Positions 8,034 through 58,561 are shown, counted from the stretch's first letter. The stretch is DNA of 64,000 nt from an uncultured Muribaculaceae bacterium (GCA_964636965.1 CAZWST010000001.1:16302-80301), one strand, 5' to 3'. Translations and numbers: made by a program. The notes: generated by a model not told the origin, from the sequence alone.

Positions 8034-9410
8034 ATGGCAAGTATAAGTAATGATTATTTCACTATTCAGTGTAGGGAAGAATATAAACCATATCTTGATA
8101 CTATTTTAGAGATGGTTTCTAAAAAAGGAGAAGAAGTTAGAAGATTTTTTACGTGTTCTGACTATCGACCTGTAAAGGTTACTTTATTTGATGATTTAGA
8201 AGATTTAAAAGATGAAGCAACAAAGACTAAGAAAAGATTTGAAGATTATGCTGAAGGGTCTTTTTCAAATAAAGGTATAGGTGTATATGTAAAAGATACA
8301 TTAAATAATAACAATTTAATTTATGTTGTTAATAGAATTGTTCATCAATACAGCCATATAATATATGCATCAGTTTGTAAGGAAGAAGATGGTCATGCTT
8401 TATGGTTAGATGAAGGTATTGCACAAACATTATCTGGTGAAAGATCATCTTTACAAAATAGTAATGAAAAAAGTAAAAGTGCTTTTTTAAGTAGAATAGT
8501 ATGTCGAAGAAAAGAAATACCTAAACTTGAATATTTAAATACTGAAGGTAATGGTAAATATTCAATTGAGTCACCAAGATATTCTGGCTATTTACTATGT
8601 TATTTTATGGTAAATTATTTATTATCTTCTAAAGTCCCTGGTAATATACCAATTAAAGATGATTATCTATTATTGGATAAATCTATTAATATTTGTGAAA
8701 AACCTGCAGCAATAAAAAAATATGAAGAGAAAAATGTTCCATTAAGAAATAGATATAATTTTAATTTATTATTAACTGATCCAGAGTATAGAAAAAAAGT
8801 AGAAGAAACTTTAGTAGTTAGAACTATTAATTATTTTGGTTCTAATTTAGGTGTTAAAATGTCTTCTGCTTCTTATAGGCATGTTAAAACTCCTCAAGAT
8901 ATACTTGATTATATGTATACTAATTTTGCCTATGGATGGTATGATGAAAAAAATGAACTACATAAAAATCCATTTGATTTTGAAAAGCGATATCGTGTTT
9001 CTTCATTCAAAGAAATATTAAAAACTTCTTATGGAACTAAACTAGAATATGCTAAATTTATTCTAGTTACATTAAAAAGACTTGGTTTTCAAGCTTCGAT
9101 ATTATTTAATGAGAGCATTGATGAACTAGATCATGTTAAATTAGAACCAGCTGTTGTGTATTTAGGTAGAAATAATCAGTTTTATCTTGTATGTGTTCCT
9201 TCTTCTAAATATGAGGGAATTCATAAATTTTCTTCATTTAAAGATTTGTTAAAAGGGTATATTTCTTCGATGGAAGAAGGAGATATACTTTATGAAAGTC
9301 TTGATATACCTGATGGTTTAACTTATCAAGAACTAGTTGATTATGTATCAACTTCAGATAAAATATATGAAGTTCCTAAAAATAATAATAATGATTTAAG
9401 TAAGTGCTAA
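8034..9410 (+). CDS. Two-domain protein: MA-clan peptidase-like N-domain (HQxxH) and transglutaminase-like C-domain lacking the Cys
   Basis: VHQYSH...WLDEGIAQ resembles HExxH...EGxA with Glu replaced by Gln; C-terminal YGTKLEYAKFILVTLKRLGF resembles the GxCxxYA core with Lys in place of Cys. Confidence 0.4.
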   Translation: MASISNDYFTIQCREEYKPYLDTILEMVSKKGEEVRRFFTCSDYRPVKVTLFDDLEDLKDEATKTKKRFEDYAEGSFSNKGIGVYVKDTLNNNNLIYVVNRIVHQYSHIIYASVCKEEDGHALWLDEGIAQTLSGERSSLQNSNEKSKSAFLSRIVCRRKEIPKLEYLNTEGNGKYSIESPRYSGYLLCYFMVNYLLSSKVPGNIPIKDDYLLLDKSINICEKPAAIKKYEEKNVPLRNRYNFNLLLTDPEYRKKVEETLVVRTINYFGSNLGVKMSSASYRHVKTPQDILDYMYTNFAYGWYDEKNELHKNPFDFEKRYRVSSFKEILKTSYGTKLEYAKFILVTLKRLGFQASILFNESIDELDHVKLEPAVVYLGRNNQFYLVCVPSSKYEGIHKFSSFKDLLKGYISSMEEGDILYESLDIPDGLTYQELVDYVSTSDKIYEVPKNNNNDLSKC

Positions 9411-43983: not shown

Positions 43984-44463
43984 ATGGAAATAGTAGACTA
44001 TGATAAAAAGTATGATGAAGAAATTAAAGATTTACTAGTTGAGTTACAAGAACATATTGCAAATATTGATAGAGAAAAATACAATATCTTAACTAGTGAA
44101 TATCGAGAAAAGTATTTTAATAAAACTATGGAAGAAGTGATTAGTTATGAGGGTAAAATATTTTTAGCTATAGATTGCGAAAAGGTAATTGGATTAATCG
44201 TGGGGCTTATTAACAATGAAGATGAAAGTACTTATGATTTTAAAGCACCTAAAAGAGGAAGAGTTTCAGAACTTGTTGTATCTTCTTCTTCAAGATCAAT
44301 GGGAATTGGAAATGCTTTACTTGAGAAAATGGAAGAGTATTTTAAAAGTGTTGGATGTAGGGGTGTCTTAATAGATGTTTTTGCTTATAATGAAGGGGCC
44401 CAAAAGTTTTATTACCGAAATGGATATTTCAATAGAAATTTAGAAGTAATGAAATTATTTTAA
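43984..44463 (+). CDS. GNAT family N-acetyltransferase
   Basis: VVSSSSRSMGIGNALLEKM motif. Confidence 0.8.
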   Translation: MEIVDYDKKYDEEIKDLLVELQEHIANIDREKYNILTSEYREKYFNKTMEEVISYEGKIFLAIDCEKVIGLIVGLINNEDESTYDFKAPKRGRVSELVVSSSSRSMGIGNALLEKMEEYFKSVGCRGVLIDVFAYNEGAQKFYYRNGYFNRNLEVMKLF

Positions 44464-44497: not shown

Positions 44498-44833
44498 ATG
44501 GATATAAAACGTGTAAAAATATTTGTAACAGTACCTGTAGAAAATGTTAATGAGGTAAGAAATGCTGTATGTGAGGTTGGAGCAGGTGTGATAGGTAATT
44601 ATACTTATTGTACTTCATCAACTAAATCAGTAGGTACATTTATGCCAAATGATAATGCAAATCCGTATATAGGTGAAAATAATAAAATGGAGTTTGTTGA
44701 TGAAGAAAAGCTTGAGTTTGTGTGTGATAAGGATTTAGTAAAAACTGTTTTAGCTAAATTAAGAGAAGTACATCCTTATGAGGAACCAGCTATAGATATA
44801 GTTCCTTTACTTGATGAAGAATTTTTTATCTAG
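44498..44833 (+). CDS. Standalone NIF3/YqfO-type PII-like insert-domain protein
   Basis: KIFVTVPVENVNEVRNAVCEVGAGVIGNYTYCT...ANPYIGE...VHPYEEPAIDIVPL pattern. Confidence 0.55.
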   Translation: MDIKRVKIFVTVPVENVNEVRNAVCEVGAGVIGNYTYCTSSTKSVGTFMPNDNANPYIGENNKMEFVDEEKLEFVCDKDLVKTVLAKLREVHPYEEPAIDIVPLLDEEFFI

Positions 44834-44846
44834 AATGTACTTCTTA

Positions 44847-45191
44847 ATGAAAACGTATGAATATAAAATAAAAAAAGATGTATATGATTTAATTAAGTCT
44901 GGACTTAAGAATACTGAATATAGACTTAAAAATGAAAAAAGTGAAAGTATAAATAAGGGTGACTTAATAGTTTTTAGTGTTCAAGATAATGATAATTACA
45001 AAATAACCGTGAGAGTTTTAGATAAGTTTATTTATGATAATTTGGACTCCTTATGGGAAGCTAAAGAACTAACAAATAATAATGTTTTAAATTTAACTAA
45101 AGATGAGTTTATAGAAAAATTTAATATGATATTTGGTGAAGATAAAGTTTCTTCAAGTAAAATAATCGGGATTAGTTTTGAATTAATTTAA
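44847..45191 (+). CDS. ASCH-domain protein
   Basis: KIKKDVYDLIKSGLKNTEYRLKNEKSESINKGDLIVF; start ambiguous (44811, 44835 or 44847). Confidence 0.55.
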   Translation: MKTYEYKIKKDVYDLIKSGLKNTEYRLKNEKSESINKGDLIVFSVQDNDNYKITVRVLDKFIYDNLDSLWEAKELTNNNVLNLTKDEFIEKFNMIFGEDKVSSSKIIGISFELI

Positions 45192-46367: not shown

Positions 46368-47315
46368 ATGAATTTTAGTGTAGAAGATTTAAGAGATTTA
46401 ATTAGGTCAGGTAAAACTAATGATGAAATAAAAAAGTATAGATTAGAGACTCTTAAAAGTGATGAATATAAAAAGTTAAGATATGAAAGCATTAAAGAAC
46501 AGGGTACTGATCAAGTGTTATTCTATGATGGTTTTATTGATTCAGAATTTAATGTTTCCTTTAAAGGTAATATGGCCACTGATGTAATTTATCATATAAG
46601 TAATGATATTGATTTTTATGATTATTTAATAGATTATATAAGAGCAAACATGGATAAAAAAGGAATGAGTTTTAAAGGTCTTATTCAATTAGTAAGAAAC
46701 TATTTTTCTTTAGATATTTATACTCCGTATGGAAAAGTGTCAAAATTATTAAGAGATTTTCAACCTAATAATAGATATTTTGCGAGAGAAAATTTGCCAT
46801 ATGTTATACATTATTATAGTCATAGTGACTATGCTGGTAGTCTAGAAGATTTTTCTGAATTATATTTAGATAATTTAAGATATAGCTACTTTAAAGATGA
46901 ATCTTTATATATGAGATCTAAGGAATTTTTAAGTTCTATTAACTGGGAAGAAGTTGAAGAAAACTCTGATATAGAGTTAGATTTATCACAACTTAAGGGT
47001 TCTGGAATTGCTGCATGTACAGAGTATTCGATGTTAATACAAAATGCTTTAGCTTTTTTAGGGTATGAGTGTTATATGTTAGGGGGAACCTTGAGTGGTG
47101 TAGATTTTTTAGAAGCTCATAATTTTAATGCTTATCTTACCAAAAAAGGAGAATATAAAATAATTGATGCTTCTCAATGTTGTTGGTCTAATCCTTTGGT
47201 GGGAATTAATTCAGTAGGAGATTTATCAAATATGGATAATGTTCAAGTTGATAATCTATTTGGATTACCAATAAAATATTCATCTGGGCATTTTAAAAAT
47301 AAAACTAAAGAATAG
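46368..47315 (+). CDS. Hypothetical protein with transglutaminase-like Cys-His-Asp core
   Basis: GIAACTEYSMLIQNALAFLGY, EAHNFNAY, KIIDAS. Confidence 0.45.
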   Translation: MNFSVEDLRDLIRSGKTNDEIKKYRLETLKSDEYKKLRYESIKEQGTDQVLFYDGFIDSEFNVSFKGNMATDVIYHISNDIDFYDYLIDYIRANMDKKGMSFKGLIQLVRNYFSLDIYTPYGKVSKLLRDFQPNNRYFARENLPYVIHYYSHSDYAGSLEDFSELYLDNLRYSYFKDESLYMRSKEFLSSINWEEVEENSDIELDLSQLKGSGIAACTEYSMLIQNALAFLGYECYMLGGTLSGVDFLEAHNFNAYLTKKGEYKIIDASQCCWSNPLVGINSVGDLSNMDNVQVDNLFGLPIKYSSGHFKNKTKE

Positions 47316-47334
47316 ATAGGATTTATTTAATAAG

Positions 47335-47552
47335 TATGAGTTAATAGTTTATACAGATTGGTTTTCCAATGATCAAAGAGATAGATTAAAAAAATATAAT
47401 TTAGATAAGTTTTTTTTCTAAAATATATGGATGGATGATTTAGAAATTCCAAATAATATTGGAATATCGACAATTTTTTTAATAGAAAAGCTCTAAAGCA
47501 AGATAAGTGTAAAAAAGTATTTAATTTAGAAACACTTAAAGCAATTCGATAG
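47335..47552 (+). pseudogene. Decayed HAD-hydrolase remnant (paralog of 24962..25690)
   Basis: YELIVYTDWFSNDQRDRLKKYNLDKFFF, in-frame TAA (47419), then NIWMDDLEIPNNIGISTIFL; lacks motif I and about 35 internal residues. Confidence 0.55.
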
Positions 47553-47571
47553 TGTATTTTTATAAAATAAA

Positions 47572-47608
47572 AACTTACGAACTAAAATAGTCCGTAAGTT
47601 ATTTTTTA
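47572..47608 (+). terminator. Rho-independent terminator
   Basis: AACTTACG / CGTAAGTT stem, 13-nt loop, T run. Confidence 0.55.
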
Positions 47609-47681
47609 ATGGAGCCATAGTTGAGTGATTACACAACTTTTTCTCGTATGAGGATGATATATAAATCATCCATCTATAAAT

Positions 47682-47690
47682 ATTATAGCA
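47682..47690 (-). promoter_or_regulatory. Outward-facing extended -10 promoter at the left end of the island
   Basis: Minus-strand TGCTATAAT just after the STAND stop; no minus-strand gene downstream for more than 3.8 kb. Confidence 0.4.
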
Positions 47691-47720
47691 CATTTTATTC
47701 TTTTTTTGAAATACTATTTG

Positions 47721-50700
47721 TTAGTTAAGAAAGTCATCAACATATTCTTCAATTTGTGTTCTTTTAATTTCTTGTTTATAACTATCAATTCTTTCATTTA
47801 AATAATTAATATGCTCTATATATAATAATTTATCTTTTCCTTTAATTTTTGTTAGTAAAGATTGAATAAATTCTATCTTTTGTTCAATAATTGGAATTCT
47901 ACTTCCACTCCATGATTCAGAATGGGAGAATAGACATACATTTTTGAATATTTCAATATTATTTGTATTATCTAGCAAAAATAATATCAATTCTTCTTTT
48001 AAACTATTGTCTTTCTCTCCAATTACATAAAATAAATAGTAAATTTCCTCTTTGTCATTCTTAGATTCTAATATCTTATTTTTGAACCAGCCTATTTGAT
48101 TATTTTTTATATTTTCCTCTGTAGCTGATTCAAATAATGAGTGTAATCGCAAATATCCTAAGTTAGAATCAATTATTTTATTGTAATTATAAGAAATTAT
48201 TTCATTATGTTTAGGATGAGTCCATATTTTTTTTATAATATTTTTGATTTTACCTGTATGATTATATCTATCTTTTTCGAGGATTTTGTTTAATAAATCA
48301 TAATTATTTATGCACAACAAATATCCTAAATTACCTTCATAATCTCCATGACATTCTACTGATTTCAAATATAATTCTTCAAGTAGCTTTTTATTAGCGA
48401 ATGCATTATATACAATTTCAGCATATTCTTCATCAGCAAATGAAATTGTATAACATGAATACAAACCAAATTCATCTTGCTCTAATATTTCCTTCGTATA
48501 ATTTTCTAATAATCCTTTATTGTACTTAGAATATTCAATAACACTTTCGATTGATAAAGTATATTTATTAGTAGTATTTTGATTTTTTATAAAATCTTTT
48601 ACTATGAATATATATTTTTTATTATGATAGTTATTAAGTATACATGTTAATAAGTAATATTTCTTTGTTGTATTACTTTTTATTATATTAGCTATTATTG
48701 CATCTAATAAATCTTTATCTAATATATCTCTGATAAAGAACAGTCCGTTTACAAATGGACAGTCTTCATATAAATACGATTTAAAAATATCTTTGAATAA
48801 AGAAGCGTCTTTGGCTATTAAATATTTAAATAAGATATCCAATGAACTTTGTATTTTCCAGTTGTCAACTTTTATGTTTTGTTTTTCAACTTTATTTAAA
48901 GTTTGAAATATTTTTGTGTAAGATTCTTTATTTTTGTTTTCTAAAAATTGTATTAACTCTTTATTTGATTTTCCATAATCATATTTTTCAAATATATTTA
49001 TTATTAGAAATTCTGGACATTCTTTATACTTTTCTAATGAAATTGGTATATCTACTTTTAATTTTTCGCATTTTAGTTTTAGTAAGTATAATATTTTGCT
49101 CTGTGTTATAGAAATATTTTTCCAGTTAATAAAGTAGTTTTCGTCTAAATATTGTACATCATTTTTTAATATTTCTATTTGATCATTGTCATAGAACCAG
49201 ATTGACTCATTTAATAGTATTTTATAATTACATTTATTTTCATCGCATAGCTGAAACACGATATCAAATAGTTTTTTTCTGAATAAGAAAACATTTTCAC
49301 TTTCTTGCAATTTTAGTGTAATAAGATTAATTGTTCTTGCATTTTTTCCCTGTTCACTAATATGAAATTCTAATTCTAGGCAATATAGTAAAGACTGTTC
49401 TAATAATATATGATATATATCTTTCATTTTAGAATTTTCTTCTTCTTTATACTTTGAATATAATATACCAGTAATTTCAACTTCTAATGCAAAGCTAGGA
49501 TATAATTCTTTTACTAGCCAATAATCTTTAAGGCTTTTACATATTTCATTATATAATCCTGGCTTTTTTTCAAGATACGACAATAGTAATTCAAAAGACA
49601 TTTTTAAATATTCTGTATTTTTAAAATCAGATATTAGATTTAATAAACCATCATTTAAATAAACATTACTATTATATTTAATTTCTTCAGGAAGTTCCTC
49701 TTTGGTATAACTGTCAATTTTATTTTTAATTTTAAGTAATGCCTTTGAAGGGTTGACATTATGAAAATATTCTACAAATTTCCAATTATTGTTATAAGTC
49801 TCTTCATTCCATACTTTATTTATTTCTGCTGTTATGTAATTAAGTGTTTCTTCATTATAAAATTGTTCATTAATCATATTTATTGCATTAATAAATTTAT
49901 TAATAAAATTAGGGTATAGTTTCTTTAACAAATCTGAAATTGTAATTATTTTATCAACAATTAGATATTTGCATAATAGATAATTAGCAAAATTTTGATC
50001 ACAAATTTTTAATGCATCTTCATTAAAATAGTCAATTAGTTCCATATCTCTTAATTTTTTAAATTCATTTACATCAAAAATTTGCAAATCACTTAATATT
50101 TTTTTTACAATTTCATTAGAAGTACTTATTGGAGATAGTAATGAGATATAGAATAATATATCCATTTCATGAGATGATATATTTTTTTCTTTAAAAATAC
50201 TATCGTAATAATTTTTAAAAACATCATACACACTATTTAAAGATTCTATCTTTCCGTCTCTAACAGCAATAAAACTCATTATTGCTAGTCGCGGATTGCC
50301 ATTTGCTATTTTTAGTATTTTTTCTTGCCAATTCTTATTTTTAACATTATAATTTTTTTCTAAAATATCTATAAGTTCTGAATCTTCCATTTTATTTAAT
50401 AGATAAATATTAGGTTCAATACATGCATTTAATTTATTTAGAACATCATCTAGTAAATAATCTCTAACAGTTGCAACTATTTTTATTTCTTCATTTTTAT
50501 TAGTTATTATTAAATCAATAATTGAGTTTAATCCATTAAGATTATTAATATCATCGATAAATATAATATACTTTTTATCACTTTTTATAGATGTTTTTAT
50601 ATCATCATATAAATTTAAACCGTTTATTCTAATACATAATGGAGTATAATTATCTTTTTGTTCTAGTTCCTTTAATATTTCTAATGAGATTTTGGTTTTA

Positions 50701-51338
50701 CCATTACCTGGCTTTCCAGATATTATTGTCATTTTTGAATCCATAATATTTTTGTAAATTAAATCTTTATCTTTTCTATATATAAAGTCTAGCTCTAAAG
50801 GGGAATTAATTGAAAATTTATCATAACGTTCTATAAATGTTTTTATATCACTAATTTGATTTGTATCTATTGGTATATTTAAAAAATCATATGCAATGCC
50901 TTGATAATTTTCACAAATGTCATGTGCCATAGAGTCTATATCCATTAAAGTTATTTTAATGCCTGGCACCAAATTAATTAATTTATTATAATCTCCTGGT
51001 TTTATATTTGTATTTGTATGAAAACAAATAATTTCTTTAATTTGTTCTTTCGTTATTCCTGTTTTCTTTTCATCACATGCTTCTTTAATATCTTTGGTTA
51101 GTTTAGCAATTGACTCTTTTTCTACTGTACCATACATTAGTAAAGTGTATTTTTGATTTTCATCAATTGAATAAGAATCTGGAATTCCTTTGGTTGTTTT
51201 ATTTGTTCCTTCTTTGCTTCCTAAGTCATGCATATTACTAAATTCAAATTTTTTAATACTATATTCTGAGCAAAAACGCTGATATTCGCCTGGTCCTAAG
51301 CTTAGTATTGCATTTTGTATTTCAATAAATTTTGACAT
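47721..51338 (-). CDS. STAND-type P-loop NTPase with N-terminal nuclease-like head and long helical C-terminal region (Avs-like)
   Basis: Walker A GKPGNGKT (208-215), Walker B YIIFIDD (257-263), ANGNPRLAI (344-351), about 850-aa C-terminal region; N-terminal GxxG...KGIPD...LLMYGTVEK. Confidence 0.6.
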   Translation of the reverse strand: MSKFIEIQNAILSLGPGEYQRFCSEYSIKKFEFSNMHDLGSKEGTNKTTKGIPDSYSIDENQKYTLLMYGTVEKESIAKLTKDIKEACDEKKTGITKEQIKEIICFHTNTNIKPGDYNKLINLVPGIKITLMDIDSMAHDICENYQGIAYDFLNIPIDTNQISDIKTFIERYDKFSINSPLELDFIYRKDKDLIYKNIMDSKMTIISGKPGNGKTKISLEILKELEQKDNYTPLCIRINGLNLYDDIKTSIKSDKKYIIFIDDINNLNGLNSIIDLIITNKNEEIKIVATVRDYLLDDVLNKLNACIEPNIYLLNKMEDSELIDILEKNYNVKNKNWQEKILKIANGNPRLAIMSFIAVRDGKIESLNSVYDVFKNYYDSIFKEKNISSHEMDILFYISLLSPISTSNEIVKKILSDLQIFDVNEFKKLRDMELIDYFNEDALKICDQNFANYLLCKYLIVDKIITISDLLKKLYPNFINKFINAINMINEQFYNEETLNYITAEINKVWNEETYNNNWKFVEYFHNVNPSKALLKIKNKIDSYTKEELPEEIKYNSNVYLNDGLLNLISDFKNTEYLKMSFELLLSYLEKKPGLYNEICKSLKDYWLVKELYPSFALEVEITGILYSKYKEEENSKMKDIYHILLEQSLLYCLELEFHISEQGKNARTINLITLKLQESENVFLFRKKLFDIVFQLCDENKCNYKILLNESIWFYDNDQIEILKNDVQYLDENYFINWKNISITQSKILYLLKLKCEKLKVDIPISLEKYKECPEFLIINIFEKYDYGKSNKELIQFLENKNKESYTKIFQTLNKVEKQNIKVDNWKIQSSLDILFKYLIAKDASLFKDIFKSYLYEDCPFVNGLFFIRDILDKDLLDAIIANIIKSNTTKKYYLLTCILNNYHNKKYIFIVKDFIKNQNTTNKYTLSIESVIEYSKYNKGLLENYTKEILEQDEFGLYSCYTISFADEEYAEIVYNAFANKKLLEELYLKSVECHGDYEGNLGYLLCINNYDLLNKILEKDRYNHTGKIKNIIKKIWTHPKHNEIISYNYNKIIDSNLGYLRLHSLFESATEENIKNNQIGWFKNKILESKNDKEEIYYLFYVIGEKDNSLKEELILFLLDNTNNIEIFKNVCLFSHSESWSGSRIPIIEQKIEFIQSLLTKIKGKDKLLYIEHINYLNERIDSYKQEIKRTQIEEYVDDFLN

Positions 51339-51388
51339 ATTTTACCTCCTAATAAAAAAACTATTATAATTACATCAGAATTAATTGT

Positions 51389-51808
51389 TTATGTATCATT
51401 TATTATTGAATTTAATGTTTCATCATTTATATTCCACAAGCCCAGCTTTCCATTTATTTCTCGGTGATAATCAATCTTTTTTATGTTTTTCAATTTCCAT
51501 GCATAACCAGTTCTTATTTTATTCCCATATGCTATATTATTTTCAGCAATTATTTTTTTATTTAATTGCTCATCTAATTCTAAGCAATCTTCAATTTCCG
51601 CAATAGCAACTATTCTTCTTGAAAGAAACTCTAAATTCATATTATCATATTTTTTTATGTCTTCTTTATCTATTCCAGTCCCAGCATGAATTAATATTTT
51701 TCCTCTATATTTTGTTTTCCAGGATCTAAATTCATATTTTTTGATTCCTTCTGCAACTAATGTTGCCCAAGGTTGTCTTAATGTTATTACCTTCAATTTA
51801 ATCACCAC
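51389..51808 (-). CDS. ASCH-domain protein
   Basis: KVITLRQPWATLVAEGIKKYEFRSWKTKYRGKILIHAG; likely true start is TTG at 51796 after GGTGAT. Confidence 0.7.
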   Translation of the reverse strand: MVIKLKVITLRQPWATLVAEGIKKYEFRSWKTKYRGKILIHAGTGIDKEDIKKYDNMNLEFLSRRIVAIAEIEDCLELDEQLNKKIIAENNIAYGNKIRTGYAWKLKNIKKIDYHREINGKLGLWNINDETLNSIINDT

Positions 51809-51812
51809 TTAT

Positions 51813-51821
51813 ATTTTATCA
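51813..51821 (-). promoter_or_regulatory. Extended -10 promoter for the ASCH and STAND genes
   Basis: Minus-strand TGATAAAAT immediately upstream of the ASCH RBS. Confidence 0.45.
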
Positions 51822-51868
51822 TATTTTTTATAAATTCTTAGAAGTTACTTAGGAATAACTTAAAATTA

Positions 51869-51877
51869 TGGTATAAT
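51869..51877 (+). promoter_or_regulatory. Extended -10 promoter for the R-M operon
   Basis: TGGTATAAT, divergent from the ASCH promoter. Confidence 0.5.
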
Positions 51878-51902
51878 TATTTGTGAGGTAATGGTGATAT
51901 AT

Positions 51903-53003
51903 ATGAGTAAGATATACAAAACGATAGATTTATTTTCAGGTTTGGGTGGAATAAGAAAAGGTTATGAAATGACAGGAAGATTTAAGAATGTTTTATCTGC
52001 AGATGTAGATAAGTATGCATGTCTTACTTATAAACACCTTTATGGTGAAGATTCATATAATGACGTTACCTCAGAAGAATTTAAAGAAAAGGTTAAGAAA
52101 ACAAATTATGATATTTTGCTAGGTGGTTTCCCTTGTCAAGCATTTTCTATTGCAGGCCTTCAAAAAGGTTTTGCTGATGAAACTAGAGGAACATTATTTT
52201 TTGATATTGCAGATATTATTAGAAGAACACGACCAAAAGCATTTATGTTAGAAAATGTTGAGGGATTGTTAAAACACGATAAAGGAAATACTTTTAAAGT
52301 TATTACAAAAGTTTTAGATGAATTAGATTATAAAATTGTAGGTGTTGATTTTTGTGGAGATAATCCTATTTATAATTCAAAAGATTTAGTTAGAACTACA
52401 AAAGACTTTGGCATTCCTCAAAAAAGAGCAAGAATATTTATAATGGGTTTTAGGAGAGATATTATTCCAAATAATTATGTTTTTCCTAATTTACCAGATC
52501 ACTCTGATAATAAAATATATAAAAATTTATATGATTTATTGGATGATAATGTTGATCCAAAATATTATTTATCGGAGAAATTATTAACTACATTAAAAAA
52601 TCATAAAAATAATCATTCAGCAGTTAAATCTGGTTTTGGTTATATAGTTGTTAATGAAGGAGATAATCCTGTTTCAAATACAATAATGGCAACTGGTGGT
52701 TCTGGTAAAGAAAGGAATTTAGTAAGACAACATCATAAAGAATATGATAATTTAATAGTTGGTAAAAAAAATCCAATTAATACTGAAGGAATAAGGAATA
52801 TGACACCTCGCGAATGGGGAAAATTACAAGGTTTTATAAATTATGCATTTATTGAAAACGGAGTTGATACTTTCTCTTTTCCTGAAGGAATTAGTGATAC
52901 ACAGCAATATAAATTATTTGGTAATTCAGTATCTATTCCAGTAATACATGAAATGGCAAAGTATATGATAGAAAGGTTGGATGAATTTTATGGCAATGAA
53001 TAA
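51903..53003 (+). CDS. DNA (cytosine-5) methyltransferase
   Basis: Motif I DLFSGLGG, IV GFPCQAFS, VI ENVEGL, VIII QKRARIFI, X GNSVSIPV. Confidence 0.9.
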   Translation: MSKIYKTIDLFSGLGGIRKGYEMTGRFKNVLSADVDKYACLTYKHLYGEDSYNDVTSEEFKEKVKKTNYDILLGGFPCQAFSIAGLQKGFADETRGTLFFDIADIIRRTRPKAFMLENVEGLLKHDKGNTFKVITKVLDELDYKIVGVDFCGDNPIYNSKDLVRTTKDFGIPQKRARIFIMGFRRDIIPNNYVFPNLPDHSDNKIYKNLYDLLDDNVDPKYYLSEKLLTTLKNHKNNHSAVKSGFGYIVVNEGDNPVSNTIMATGGSGKERNLVRQHHKEYDNLIVGKKNPINTEGIRNMTPREWGKLQGFINYAFIENGVDTFSFPEGISDTQQYKLFGNSVSIPVIHEMAKYMIERLDEFYGNE

Positions 53004-54054
53004 AGGTGAATGGTCAGAACTATATGCAATTTTGCATATGCTATCTGAACCAGACTTAACAATTGTAGATGATAATTTAGAAGAAATAACTAATGAGTTA
53101 TATAGTGTTAAAAATTTGTCAGTTAAAGAACAAGAGAACATTATTAAATATGTTTTAGAAAACAATATGGATGTACAAGTGTATTTTAATAATGATATTA
53201 AACAACTTATTTCAAAAGAAGAAATTGCTTTTAATAAAAAATTAATATTTGATGGAATCATACATTCTATTAATGGTAATGGTGCTTTTGAAATATCTGG
53301 ATCGAATGCAATATTATCTAAAATGACTCCAGATGTTTTATTAAAAGCTTCTTCTTACTCAAAAGCTGATTTGCAAGCTTTAGTTTTAGATAAAAGACTT
53401 GGTGAAGAAAAAGAATTAAAATATAGTATTAAGTCCAGCTTAGGTAATCCTGCAACTATTTTAAATGCAAGTACACAGACAAACTTTGTTTATGAAGTTA
53501 AAGGAATATCTAAAGCTGATATAGAAAAAATAAATTCGATAGATACACGAACTAAATTACTTGATAGAATTAAGATGATTAGAAAACTAAATGGGGAAAT
53601 TAATTTTGTAAAAGTTCAAAATGATAACTTTGAATATAATCTAAAACTTATTGATAGTAATATGCCAAATTATCTTGGTGATGCTTTACTTAATTCTTAT
53701 GAAAAGAATACAAAAAATTTGAAATCATTATTTTTAATGTCTTCCAAATTTGATGATGAGACATTTGCATTAAAAAAGTTAGGAGATTTTTTAGAAGGAA
53801 TAAGTTTCGGATTTTTTCCTAGCAAAAAATGGGATGGTATAAATGATGTAAATGGAGGCCTTATAGTTGTTAAAAGAAATGGTTCTGTTGTTATATTAGA
53901 CTTGATTTATTATAGAAACGAAGTAAGAAAATATTTAATTGATAGAACAAAATTTGACTCTCCAAGCACAACACGATATAAAATGTTAGAATTATTTGAA
54001 AAAAATGGTAAAATTTATTTTACTTTGAATTTGCAAATAAGATATTCTGAATAA
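52981..54054 (+). CDS. Type II restriction endonuclease, HpaII-like
   Basis: N-terminal NKGEWSELYAILHMLS recalled as typical of HpaII-family enzymes; about 355 aa; overlaps the methylase stop; start 52981, 52990 or 52996. Confidence 0.55.
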   Translation: MNFMAMNKGEWSELYAILHMLSEPDLTIVDDNLEEITNELYSVKNLSVKEQENIIKYVLENNMDVQVYFNNDIKQLISKEEIAFNKKLIFDGIIHSINGNGAFEISGSNAILSKMTPDVLLKASSYSKADLQALVLDKRLGEEKELKYSIKSSLGNPATILNASTQTNFVYEVKGISKADIEKINSIDTRTKLLDRIKMIRKLNGEINFVKVQNDNFEYNLKLIDSNMPNYLGDALLNSYEKNTKNLKSLFLMSSKFDDETFALKKLGDFLEGISFGFFPSKKWDGINDVNGGLIVVKRNGSVVILDLIYYRNEVRKYLIDRTKFDSPSTTRYKMLELFEKNGKIYFTLNLQIRYSE

Positions 54055-54056
54055 TA

Positions 54057-54100
54057 AAAAGATGATTAGAGTTTATAATTATAACTCAAAATCATCTTTT
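54057..54100. terminator. Long bidirectional hairpin terminator
   Basis: AAAAGATGATT...AATCATCTTTT outer stem with an inner AT-rich stem, between convergent genes. Confidence 0.7.
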
Positions 54101-55446
54101 TCTTTGACTTGTTCTCCATAACCTAAAATATTATCATAAGTTTCTGTACTAATTATTTTATGGTCATGCATATCTTCTAAAACCTCAATATAAGAATTTT
54201 CTTTATCTTTTCTATTTATCATTTTCTTAAATAAATTAACTAGTCTTTTAAAGAATTGTTCTAATTGTTGAAATCTATATTTTAGATTGAAATTATCTTG
54301 CCTTAACTCATCAATTCTATCTTGTTGTTCATTAACTTTTGTAGTTAGATTATCAACTCTTAATTCTAATGCTTCATTATTTTCTCGTAAATTTTTAATT
54401 TTTTTTGAATCTTGCCTAACTTGTTTAGTAATAATATTTAAGTTTGCTGATAATTCTTTTACATCTCTATATTTATCAGTTGTTTTATCAACTTTATCAA
54501 TATAATCTTCTAATTTATCTTTTTGCTCTTTAGAAATGAAAAATAAATCATCTCTTAAAGGAACTTTTTTTAACTTGTCTATTTCAATTTTGATATCGGT
54601 AGAAGTAGACTTAAGTTCTAAAGAATTATTGCTTATTGTATCTATTTCTTTTTGATGCTTTTCAATTAAATCTTTTGTTTCTTGATAATTAGTCATGTCA
54701 GATACATGAATATCTCTGTTTCTTCCTTTTAGTTTTTGCTTTAAAGTTGCTTCCATGTTGTACTCTTTGTTATATTCTTCAATACATAAAGTTCGCATTT
54801 TATCTTGTAATTCTTTTAAAGAAGTTCTAGTAAATACATCAGTTTTTCCTACTTGCATAGACATACCAGTTTTACAATTATATTTAATTGGTACACCAAC
54901 AATATGCATATGTGGACTTGTTTCATCATAATGAATGATAGCACTACATACTTTAAAGTTTGGAACTAATAGTTCTAAATCATCAACTTGTTTAGAATAT
55001 ACACTAGTCATTTTATGCTTATAATTTAAATCTTTAGTATCCCAGAACTTCTTATCTCCAAGTTCAATTATAATCTCGCAAGCTAAATCGCTTTTAGAGT
55101 TATCACTAACTTTTTTAAAGTAATTATCTATTTTTCTATCATCTCTAGTTTGTTTATTATTGTATTCAAGTCTTGCTTCTTCAAATTCATTTTTATAAAA
55201 TTTTTCTATATCTTTATAAAGAGAAGAAGTACCTTTAACAATAACTATCTCATCTTGCTTATTATCATACATTCTGTAATTATGATGATCTACTTTTGAT
55301 AATTGTTTAGTGTTTTGTATTGCGTTATTGCTCATTGAAGTAGTACTACTAATATTATTTTTTGCAGAATTTCTTACACTATTTTTTCTATTTTTATCAC
55401 TACCTAAATGTAGTGAATATGCAAGTTCACTTATTATAATCACCAT
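54079..55446 (-). CDS. MobV (Pre/Mob) family relaxase
   Basis: HHNYR (HxxR) and HYDETSPHMHIVGVP (HxDExxPHxH) motifs; coiled-coil C-terminal half. Confidence 0.8.
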   Translation of the reverse strand: MVIIISELAYSLHLGSDKNRKNSVRNSAKNNISSTTSMSNNAIQNTKQLSKVDHHNYRMYDNKQDEIVIVKGTSSLYKDIEKFYKNEFEEARLEYNNKQTRDDRKIDNYFKKVSDNSKSDLACEIIIELGDKKFWDTKDLNYKHKMTSVYSKQVDDLELLVPNFKVCSAIIHYDETSPHMHIVGVPIKYNCKTGMSMQVGKTDVFTRTSLKELQDKMRTLCIEEYNKEYNMEATLKQKLKGRNRDIHVSDMTNYQETKDLIEKHQKEIDTISNNSLELKSTSTDIKIEIDKLKKVPLRDDLFFISKEQKDKLEDYIDKVDKTTDKYRDVKELSANLNIITKQVRQDSKKIKNLRENNEALELRVDNLTTKVNEQQDRIDELRQDNFNLKYRFQQLEQFFKRLVNLFKKMINRKDKENSYIEVLEDMHDHKIISTETYDNILGYGEQVKEKDDFEL

Positions 55447-55665: not shown

Positions 55666-57658
<1,993 letters not shown>

Positions 57659-58360: not shown

Positions 58361-58420
58361 CCTTTCTTTCGATTGGATGATTTATTTGTATTTCCAAGCT
58401 CACATATGGAGTTCGGAACA

Positions 58421-58447
58421 CAAAAAAATCTATCTTTCGATAGATTT
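58421..58447 (-). terminator. Rho-independent terminator after tRNA-Gly
   Basis: Minus strand AAATCTATC-GAAA-GATAGATTT then T7. Confidence 0.7.
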
Positions 58448-58486
58448 ATATATCAAGCTCAGAAAAGTTCCGAGCAGATTCCTCAA

Positions 58487-58561
58487 TGGAGCAAGTGAGG
58501 AGAATCGAACTCCCGTCTCAACCTTGGCAAGGTCGCATTCTAGCCGTTGAACCACACCTGC
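58487..58561 (-). tRNA. tRNA-Gly (anticodon GCC), CCA encoded
   Basis: Hand-folded cloverleaf: acceptor GCAGGTG/CACTTGC, anticodon stem CGACC/GGTTG, loop TTGCCAA, T arm GGGAG-TTCGATT-CTCCT, U73, CCA; 75 nt. Confidence 0.9.

Follow-up and report, generated by a model that had tools for sequence, protein, structure and literature searches.

The window analysed here is a 64,000-nt stretch of AT-rich DNA (G+C about 22-30%) from an uncultured Muribaculaceae bacterium (GCA_964636965.1 CAZWST010000001.1:16302-80301). Its minus strand carries a gene for a large STAND NTPase of 1205 amino acids (aa) at 47721-51338, which is preceded by a gene with an ASCH domain at 51389-51808 on the same strand. The spacer between them (51339-51388) is 50 nt long and contains an AGGAGG ahead of the STAND ATG. 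The ASCH gene encodes 139 aa from a GTG or 135 aa from a TTG at 51796; the TTG is the likelier start, because a Shine-Dalgarno-like GGTGAT lies upstream of it and the alignments of many ASCH orthologs begin at about 51795. A first-pass annotation of the same sequence had described both open reading frames (ORFs) with these lengths, spacing and strand, and had placed them on a mobilizable island beside a restriction–modification (R-M) pair, which agrees with the Pfam assignments of a serine recombinase, a Mob_Pre relaxase, a C5 methylase and RE_HpaII in the adjoining DNA. It had further proposed that ASCH and STAND form a two-gene defence module.

The NTPase module of the STAND protein (about residues 190-400; 50139-50771, minus strand) is matched by Pfam nSTAND3 (PF20720) at residues 195-309, with 35.3 bits against a gathering cut-off of 27.2, and weakly by NB-ARC at residues 246-398. 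Residue conservation was scored in 38 homologs with identities down to 21%, among which nSTAND_NTPase5 (PF25199) matches 35 at E <= 0.01 and nSTAND3 matches 30. Walker A (G208-T215) and Walker B (Y257-D263) are positioned as annotated before, and their key residues are invariant in this set. The motif ANGNPRLAI had also been correctly recognised, but it occupies residues 345-353, one residue off the earlier position. Together, the invariant or nearly invariant residues of the module are G208, G211, G213, K214, D262, D263, N265, R292, Y294, N348 and R350.

The N-terminal effector domain (about residues 1-165; 50844-51338, minus strand) has no match in Pfam, either to Mrr_cat or to another nuclease family. 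The AlphaFold model of residues 1-190 (predicted local distance difference test, pLDDT, 84.7) has an alpha/beta core, and its top match in the PDB, found with Foldseek, is the Avs4 chain 8dgf_B (E = 4e-4, probability 1.0, template modelling score (TM) 0.50), followed by the small subunit of R.BspD6I, EcoO109I, PspGI and the nuclease domains of Card1/Can2. These matches indicate that the modelled head has a PD-(D/E)xK-type restriction-endonuclease-like core fold, with moderate similarity (TM 0.4-0.5), in line with the nuclease-like, Mrr-type head suggested previously. The proposed catalytic assignment to D54, E73 and K74 needs correcting: D54 is invariant, and the pair P53-D54 (in GxPD), with which strand 2 starts, is invariant or almost invariant, but E73 is kept in only 21 of the 38 homologs and K74 in 14. 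The invariant residues of the domain are G40, K47, G51, D54, K79, D83 and Q161, and K47, K79 and D83 may substitute for the catalytic (D/E)xK residues.

Residues 401-1205 (47721-50138, minus strand), the presumed sensor, form an all-alpha solenoid in the AlphaFold2 (AF2) model (pLDDT 89, helical almost throughout), which matches the helix-rich C-terminal stretch noted in the first reading of the sequence. Foldseek returned only generic HEAT/ARM solenoids at a TM of about 0.2, so that these matches give no clue to a ligand. The tail diverges faster than the head (69% identity in the head versus 47% in the tail for homolog P0017, and 44% versus 31% for P0040), a pattern that would be expected of a sensor domain. 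The nuclease-fold head, the nSTAND3 NTPase and the alpha-solenoid tail, as modelled, make up the tripartite layout of Avs/AVAST proteins. The family comprises 104 homologs in a set of 5.8 billion proteins, and relatives were found in 415 stretches of a one-genome-per-species collection, with lengths, where seen, mostly of about 1190-1270 aa; architecture and length are constant across the family. The relatives belong mostly to Bacillota (gut Bacilli metagenome-assembled genomes, some labelled Tenericutes/Mollicutes, together with Clostridia and Paenibacillus), and others occur in Cyanobacteria, Melainabacteria, Planctomycetes and Proteobacteria. The plasmid collection contained distant homologs only, annotated as hypothetical or ATP-binding proteins.

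Among described systems, Avs4 (AVAST type 4) is close in layout, as it is likewise encoded by a single gene and combines a PD-(D/E)xK/Mrr-like nuclease head with a STAND NTPase and a large helical C-terminal sensor; the entry 8dgf, which gave the best structural match of the head, is Avs4 bound to the portal of phage PhiV-1. However, no sequence-level relationship with Avs4 was detected by the PADLOC Avs profiles or the PDB profile search, the STAND protein is shorter (1205 versus 1534 aa) with an NTPase that falls into Pfam nSTAND3/5, and its head has the invariant K47, D54, K79, D83 and Q161 in place of a conserved (D/E)xK. The NTPase of Avs5 (SIR2-STAND) has been annotated as Pfam nSTAND3 (bioRxiv 10.1101/2025.07.08.663546), and Avs5 thus shares with the STAND protein the NTPase family PF20720, as well as a helical-repeat C-terminal sensor. 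In contrast to Avs5, the effector here is a nuclease-fold head rather than SIR2, and no PADLOC Avs model matches. The STAND protein has no match to the described Avs1-5 profiles, yet it is Avs-like by architecture. It is a reasonable candidate for a new Avs type, given a family that is present in at least 415 stretches from several phyla and missed by the PADLOC profiles, and a nuclease-fold head that carries an atypical set of invariant residues.

The surroundings of the STAND gene were compared in 80 genomic loci fetched for its relatives, and 86 loci were used for the profile search. A phmmer search of the 80 loci with the ASCH protein of the window gave one match (L008), 5.3 kb downstream of the STAND gene and on the opposite strand. 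A profile of 72 ASCH orthologs, run against all stop-to-stop ORFs of the 86 loci, found no adjacent ASCH, its sole match being a non-adjacent ORF of L008. Conserved adjacency in other genomes had been put forward in the first-pass annotation as the test of its two-gene module; an ASCH neighbour was present in 0 of 86 loci, and the ASCH-less loci include relatives that are 84-98% identical to the STAND protein of the window. The 566 ORFs around the STAND gene in the 80 loci fall into 424 clusters, and Pfam searches of the 115 ORFs directly upstream gave no ASCH among the 25 commonest families. The dominant families at this position are helix-turn-helix (HTH) proteins, components of type I and type II R-M systems and AlbA_2, and PADLOC agrees that the surroundings are rich in R-M genes; only 6 of the 80 loci have a C5 methylase gene at a distance of up to about 6 kb from the STAND gene. 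In these comparisons the STAND gene has no conserved partner, and its neighbours are unrelated across the 80-86 loci.

The limits of DNA homology delineate the STAND cassette. In L001 and L002, whose STAND copies are 97-98% identical, the DNA shared with the window is confined to 51359/51367 through 47607-47609; it begins 21-29 nt before the STAND ATG and runs to about 110 nt past the stop, and a 97% copy (L179) has its downstream homology limit likewise at 47607. Upstream of its copy, L001 has an Ltp-like lipoprotein gene and a small ORF, L179 a 453-aa gene whose sole match, to HTH_29, is faint, and L175 DUF5684. In L178 (3682-8618), which carries an 84% copy, the STAND gene is preceded at 80 nt by a same-strand C5 methylase gene, from which a MutH-family gene diverges, showing that the STAND gene also lands beside 5-methylcytosine (m5C) R-M modules without ASCH. 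The left recombination junction of the cassette falls inside the ASCH-STAND spacer, and ASCH loci with other cargo lose homology to the window at 51403-51430. The ASCH-STAND pair recurs only with a 99% identical ASCH on the same backbone of Mob, R.HpaII and methylase, and these recurring pairs are one element lineage found across several samples. On these junctions, the adjacency of ASCH and STAND would be an accident of cargo placement and not a two-gene system, and the two genes are probably co-transcribed in the window merely through where the cargo landed.

Transcription signals were also inspected. A terminator scan of 47300-52100 found none between ASCH and STAND, as had been stated before, and its sole site (47600-47572) lies downstream of STAND. 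The promoter annotated before ASCH, TGATAAAAT, is indeed present at 51821-51813 (minus strand) as an extended -10-like sequence in the 82-nt divergent intergenic region between ASCH and the methylase. However, 43 promoter-like sites were found against 45 expected in shuffles of this AT-rich region, and, because such matches are at chance level, TGATAAAAT is not evidence of promoter function. A promoter-like site (TAAACA-17-TATAAT) is also present in the ASCH-STAND spacer (51338-51391). Its -10 box coincides with the start of homology to the ASCH-less STAND loci (51359-51367), which may be due to chance in the AT-rich background.

The ASCH protein is recognised by Pfam PF04266 (E = 4e-8; 34.3 bits against a cut-off of 21.2), and its best sequence matches in the PDB are the ASCH domain of ASC-1/TRIP4 and TTHA0113. 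Its conserved signature is QPWAxL...GxKxYEFRSWK..YRG..LIHAG. Homologs are numerous (2659 detectable, with identities of 74-100% among the 120 matches listed), and the phage collection contained distant ones only (27-33% identity). In the window, ASCH is divergent from a C5 cytosine DNA methyltransferase gene (51891-53003, plus strand; PF00145, E = 9e-77), which overlaps by 23 nt the gene for an HpaII-family restriction endonuclease (52981-54054, plus strand; RE_HpaII, PF09561, E = 9e-74). The adjacent C5 methylase and HpaII endonuclease constitute an HpaII-type m5C type II R-M pair.

Examination of 94 ASCH ortholog loci (L081-L174; 48-88% identity) showed the STAND family of the window in none of them, and a recurrent association with such methylases. 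Of the 64 loci with enough sequence, 40 have a C5 methylase upstream of ASCH at a distance of up to 3 kb, and none has one downstream. Because many of these loci are closely related, the ratio exaggerates how many independent events there were; the link is backed by about 10-12 distinct gene arrangements. After dereplication of the ASCH loci, DNA_methylase was the commonest family among 98 upstream ORFs (n = 16), followed by HTH (4), RE_HpaII (3), N6_N4_Mtase (3), RE_Eco47II (2) and MvaI/BcnI (1). The partnering restriction enzymes belong to at least three families (HpaII, Eco47II and MvaI/BcnI), in addition to several without a Pfam match. Two arrangements occur. On the one hand, the methylase can be divergent as in the window; L095-L097 and L181-L188 have this layout too, and in L095-L097 the upstream gap also equals that of the window. 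On the other hand, methylase, restriction enzyme and ASCH can form an operon, ASCH often being third and overlapping the restriction enzyme gene; the first 9 nt of ASCH lie within R.Eco47II in 18 loci, and elsewhere R.HpaII abuts ASCH with zero gap; further endonuclease-sized genes also occur (examples of ASCH-R-M loci are L126 4258-5378, L138 3928-5378 and L095 3806-5405). The R.Eco47II-ASCH and R.HpaII-ASCH operons, in which neither the 78-nt element described below nor any further DNA similarity to the window was found, would be left unexplained if ASCH were a plain backbone gene of the island, a reading that was rejected. The best-supported statement on ASCH is that it is probably an accessory of cytosine-methylating R-M modules, in which it could read the methylation status, handle deamination damage or act on modified-cytosine DNA.

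Published links of ASCH are with N6-adenine methylases, in operons, and, for stand-alone ASCH, with type I R-M, and a reading of modified bases has been predicted (PMC4738411, PMC7641849). The ASCH of the window differs in that it accompanies C5-cytosine type II R-M, a link that was not found described in literature searches. The experimentally supported activity of ASCH proteins is on N4-acylated cytosines (PMC11037411), and the N4-acylcytosine amidohydrolase YqfB belongs to the same fold family as the ASCH of the window. BapA, a 5-hydroxymethylcytosine (5hmC) DNA glycosylase, has an AlphaFold 3 model described as ASCH-like (bioRxiv 10.64898/2026.02.25.707755, a 2026 preprint); the model has two beta-barrel domains, whereas the ASCH of the window is much shorter (135-139 aa) and closest to the ASC-1/TRIP4 type. 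The pattern of a small gene that accompanies C5 methyltransferases whatever the restriction enzyme could be compared, purely as a hypothesis, with Vsr. The Vsr endonuclease is encoded by a small accessory gene found with Dcm-type C5 methylases. ASCH has, however, a PUA-like beta-barrel and not the Vsr fold, and we know of no ASCH activity on T:G mismatches or m5C. The link with C5 R-M gives a testable handle on the function of prokaryotic ASCH domains.

The downstream side is far less uniform than the upstream one. After ASCH orthologs of 50-85% identity, a same-strand gene lies within 150 nt in 74 loci, and these genes belong to 31 unrelated families. The annotated ones encode a PD-T4-6-like Ser/Thr kinase, OLD/AriA/GajA-like ATPases, a PifA-like KAP NTPase, a Tmn/YobI NTPase, an Avs2-like STAND protein, a mad3-like ABC ATPase, an ABC-F protein and a serine recombinase (examples of downstream genes are L081 4415-5962, L095 5507-8113, L126 5396-7093, L137 5413-7443 and L145 5421-8843). 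On the left flank, homology between the window and ASCH loci with other cargo ends in the 3′ end of ASCH (51403-51430); on the right flank, homology resumes right after the stop of the unrelated cargo, from 47719/47699 to 47557-47610 in the window, a region that includes a conserved 78-nt element (47610-47687, minus strand). In a group of loci whose ASCH is 80-85% identical, ASCH itself is conserved but homology with the window breaks off to its left and to its right. The alignments suggest that the ASCH 3′ end and the 78-nt element bracket a slot where unrelated single-gene defence systems are swapped. Proteins without annotation also follow ASCH, of 509-511 aa (L106, L111-L114), 972 aa (L138) and 343 aa (L124), and these could be new single-gene defence candidates; the slot is well delimited and could be mined for such systems in gut Bacillota. 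Hotspots of the P2/P4 type are likewise slots bracketed by conserved flanks and filled with diverse unrelated defence genes. The ASCH slot resembles them in this respect but differs in that it belongs to a small serine-recombinase/Mob_Pre island of low-GC gut Bacillota, and in its borders, which are a gene (ASCH) and a non-coding element at the island end.

The reading that we favour, with a probability of about 0.75, is that the STAND protein acts on its own as an immune sensor of the Avs-like (bacterial NLR-like) kind, encoded by a single gene that is the last cargo of an island of about 10.9 kb, and that ASCH is not its partner. If the STAND protein works as Avs proteins do, its fast-evolving alpha-solenoid tail would bind a phage-derived ligand, and ligand binding would license ATP-dependent oligomerisation via the nSTAND3/5 NTPase. 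Oligomerisation could then join the PD-(D/E)xK-fold heads, leading to DNA cutting and abortive infection. ASCH would belong with the cytosine-methylating R-M module and form the conserved left border of the slot, and unrelated single-gene defence systems would be exchanged between its 3′ end and the 78-nt element.

Several observations weigh against this reading. The fold match of the head to Avs4 is only moderate (TM 0.50, root-mean-square deviation 7.5 Å), and the canonical (D/E)xK triad appears not to be conserved, so that the predicted nuclease activity cannot be taken for granted. The first-pass annotation had considered that the protein might match an existing Avs or bNACHT family, but no such match was found: PADLOC-DB v2.0.0 gave for the STAND protein only mad8 at E = 0.009 and no Avs model, and, for STAND and ASCH alike, PADLOC produced no meaningful match and NCBIfam none. 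A profile of the STAND family run against PDB sequences likewise retrieved only P-loop helicases and no Avs or NLR chain. We infer the defence function from architecture and neighbourhood. In addition, ASCH and STAND, with no terminator between them, have been kept together in about 16 contigs from at least six samples, and a lineage-specific functional interaction between them is conceivable. The close relatedness of many ASCH loci, mentioned above, also counts here.

The possibility that ASCH and STAND form an obligate two-gene system, with ASCH sensing or processing a modified base and signalling to the STAND protein or being needed by it, appears very improbable. The shared strand, the 50-nt gap without a terminator and the pair found intact in those contigs would fit it, as would the PUA-like fold of ASCH, which is predicted to read modified bases (PMC4738411, PMC7641849); however, the 16 contigs represent one element lineage, none of the 86 STAND loci has an adjacent ASCH even where the copies are 84-98% identical, none of the 94 other ASCH ortholog loci has the STAND family of the window, and the cassette junction lies inside the spacer. 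If the pairing is not a system, cloning the pair as a unit would be misdirected. A less specific version, in which ASCH is a generic leader or accessory of whatever defence gene follows, acting as a regulator, like those that precede many different defence systems, or as a sensor of modified nucleic acids that controls the expression or activity of the cargo, is unlikely, though it would account for the 74 loci in which a same-strand gene follows within 150 nt, the annotated ones encoding mostly large P-loop defence proteins or kinases. It would also fit the 80-85% identity group, where ASCH is an anchor that stays conserved while both flanks change. Yet PifA, Tmn, OLD and PD-T4-6 work alone and are listed as single-gene systems in PADLOC, the STAND family occurs in ASCH-less contexts throughout the 86 loci, and some of the downstream genes (ABC-F, serine recombinase and small ORFs) are not defence genes. 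ASCH moreover lacks a DNA-binding HTH, and its translational coupling is toward the upstream restriction enzyme rather than the downstream gene.

It is also improbable that the STAND protein has no anti-phage role and serves instead as an addiction or exclusion function of the mobile element against competing elements, or is an inactive relic. Its constant occurrence in mobile or variable contexts, the lack of a match to a known Avs profile and the atypical catalytic triad of the head are what such a role might look like. However, homologs from Bacillota through Cyanobacteria and Planctomycetes to Proteobacteria retain the full-length architecture and the NTPase motifs, a conservation that speaks for functional selection. 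Among the neighbours, genes of R-M and other defence systems predominate, and in the same slot the gene is interchangeable with relatives of known anti-phage genes. Beyond the single-gene Avs-like reading of the STAND protein, a wider one is possible, which we hold tentatively and judge doubtful as a whole: an ASC-1-type ASCH would be an undescribed third component of mostly m5C type II R-M systems in low-GC gut Bacillota, and its 3′ border would form, together with the 78-nt element, an exchange slot for single-gene defence. Under it, ASCH could read or process modified or deaminated cytosine, in a manner like that of Vsr or related to the ASCH-fold glycosylases.

The island that carries these genes is arranged in the order serine recombinase, Mob_Pre relaxase, HpaII-type m5C R-M pair, ASCH, cargo gene and 78-nt end. 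The large serine recombinase (55666-57588, minus strand) has the Pfam domains Resolvase and Recombinase, and the Mob_Pre relaxase (54079-55446, minus strand; PF01076) has about 90% DNA identity to L001. At the recombinase end, the island abuts the 3′ end of a tRNA-Gly(GCC) gene (58487-58561, minus strand), identified by ARAGORN and Rfam. The 8-nt sequence GCTCCATT (GCTCCA, then TT), which follows the tRNA body, is found again at 47615-47608, where the island ends on the other side. The reading that needs the fewest assumptions is that an integrative mobilizable element of about 10.9 kb has been inserted at the 3′ end of the tRNA-Gly(GCC) gene; this reading is only moderately supported, because the repeat in the window is just 8 nt long. 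In it, and with the same moderate support, the cargo slot is the last position before the distal island junction. The terminator-like hairpin with a T-run at 47572-47600 (minus strand) is probably the original tRNA-Gly terminator, displaced by the island; the fold energy of 47565-47680, a segment that includes this hairpin, is -32.9 kcal/mol (z = -5.9). An island without recombinase and relaxase, made up of R.HpaII, methylase, ASCH and a PifA-like gene, follows a tRNA-Gly(TCC) in L097, where the tRNA 3′ end and terminator are present on either side of it as a 47-nt direct repeat (2505-2625, 8141-8250). The termini of the island in the window have an inverted partial similarity (47720-47621 versus 58401-58486) with a score of 45, against a mean of 25.7 and a maximum of 44 in shuffles, which hints at recombinase half-sites, a suggestive but weak signal. 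Separately, L095 8979-9078, which lies after the cargo and the 78-nt element, matches window 58077-57977 at 77%; this sequence resembles the small ORF that precedes the recombinase, and it points either to a second element in tandem or to the island in circular form.

The 78-nt element at the distal end is 91-98% identical in 24 sequences, namely the window and 23 other loci, some of which have no ASCH (47687-47610 in the window; elsewhere, for example, L001/L002 9650-9727, L081 5975-6052, L095 8152-8214 and L175 8663-8741). The genes that precede it include the STAND gene, a kinase, a PifA-like gene, a 315-aa gene and the occupant of the cargo slot of L098. It has an invariant TATAAT, a perfect 7-bp hairpin GGATGATTTATATATCATCC (GGATGAT/ATCATCC) and a terminal GCTCCA, past which the loci diverge, each into a different terminator-like hairpin. 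Rfam searches gave no family for the element, the best matches being far below the gathering scores, and the viral contigs gave no match. An identity as tRNA or tmRNA was rejected, ARAGORN being negative and the similarity to tRNA-Gly insignificant, and so was a coding role, as the length of the short ORF varies between loci. An integron-like attC reading was also dropped, since there is no tyrosine integrase and the element lies at the island end, beside the copied 3′ end of the tRNA. The candidate roles are a recombinase arm site, a small RNA or both. The element, like the ASCH-m5C R-M link and the slot, is a by-product of this analysis that could matter more than the STAND finding. As far as literature searches show, the ASCH-m5C R-M link, the slot and the 78-nt element appear to be new observations, drawn from a limited and partly redundant sample.

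The genes outside the island are housekeeping-like: past one end lie an ABC transporter, TetR and GNAT, and past the other a sulfatase-family protein and FTHFS. Another ASCH-domain ORF, of 126 aa and unrelated to the first, is also outside the island, at 44811-45191 (plus strand; Pfam E = 7e-6), two genes downstream of a GNAT acetyltransferase gene (43984-44463, plus strand). A homolog of the GNAT gene region is found in L114, about 0.6 kb beyond the ASCH-plus-cargo pair.

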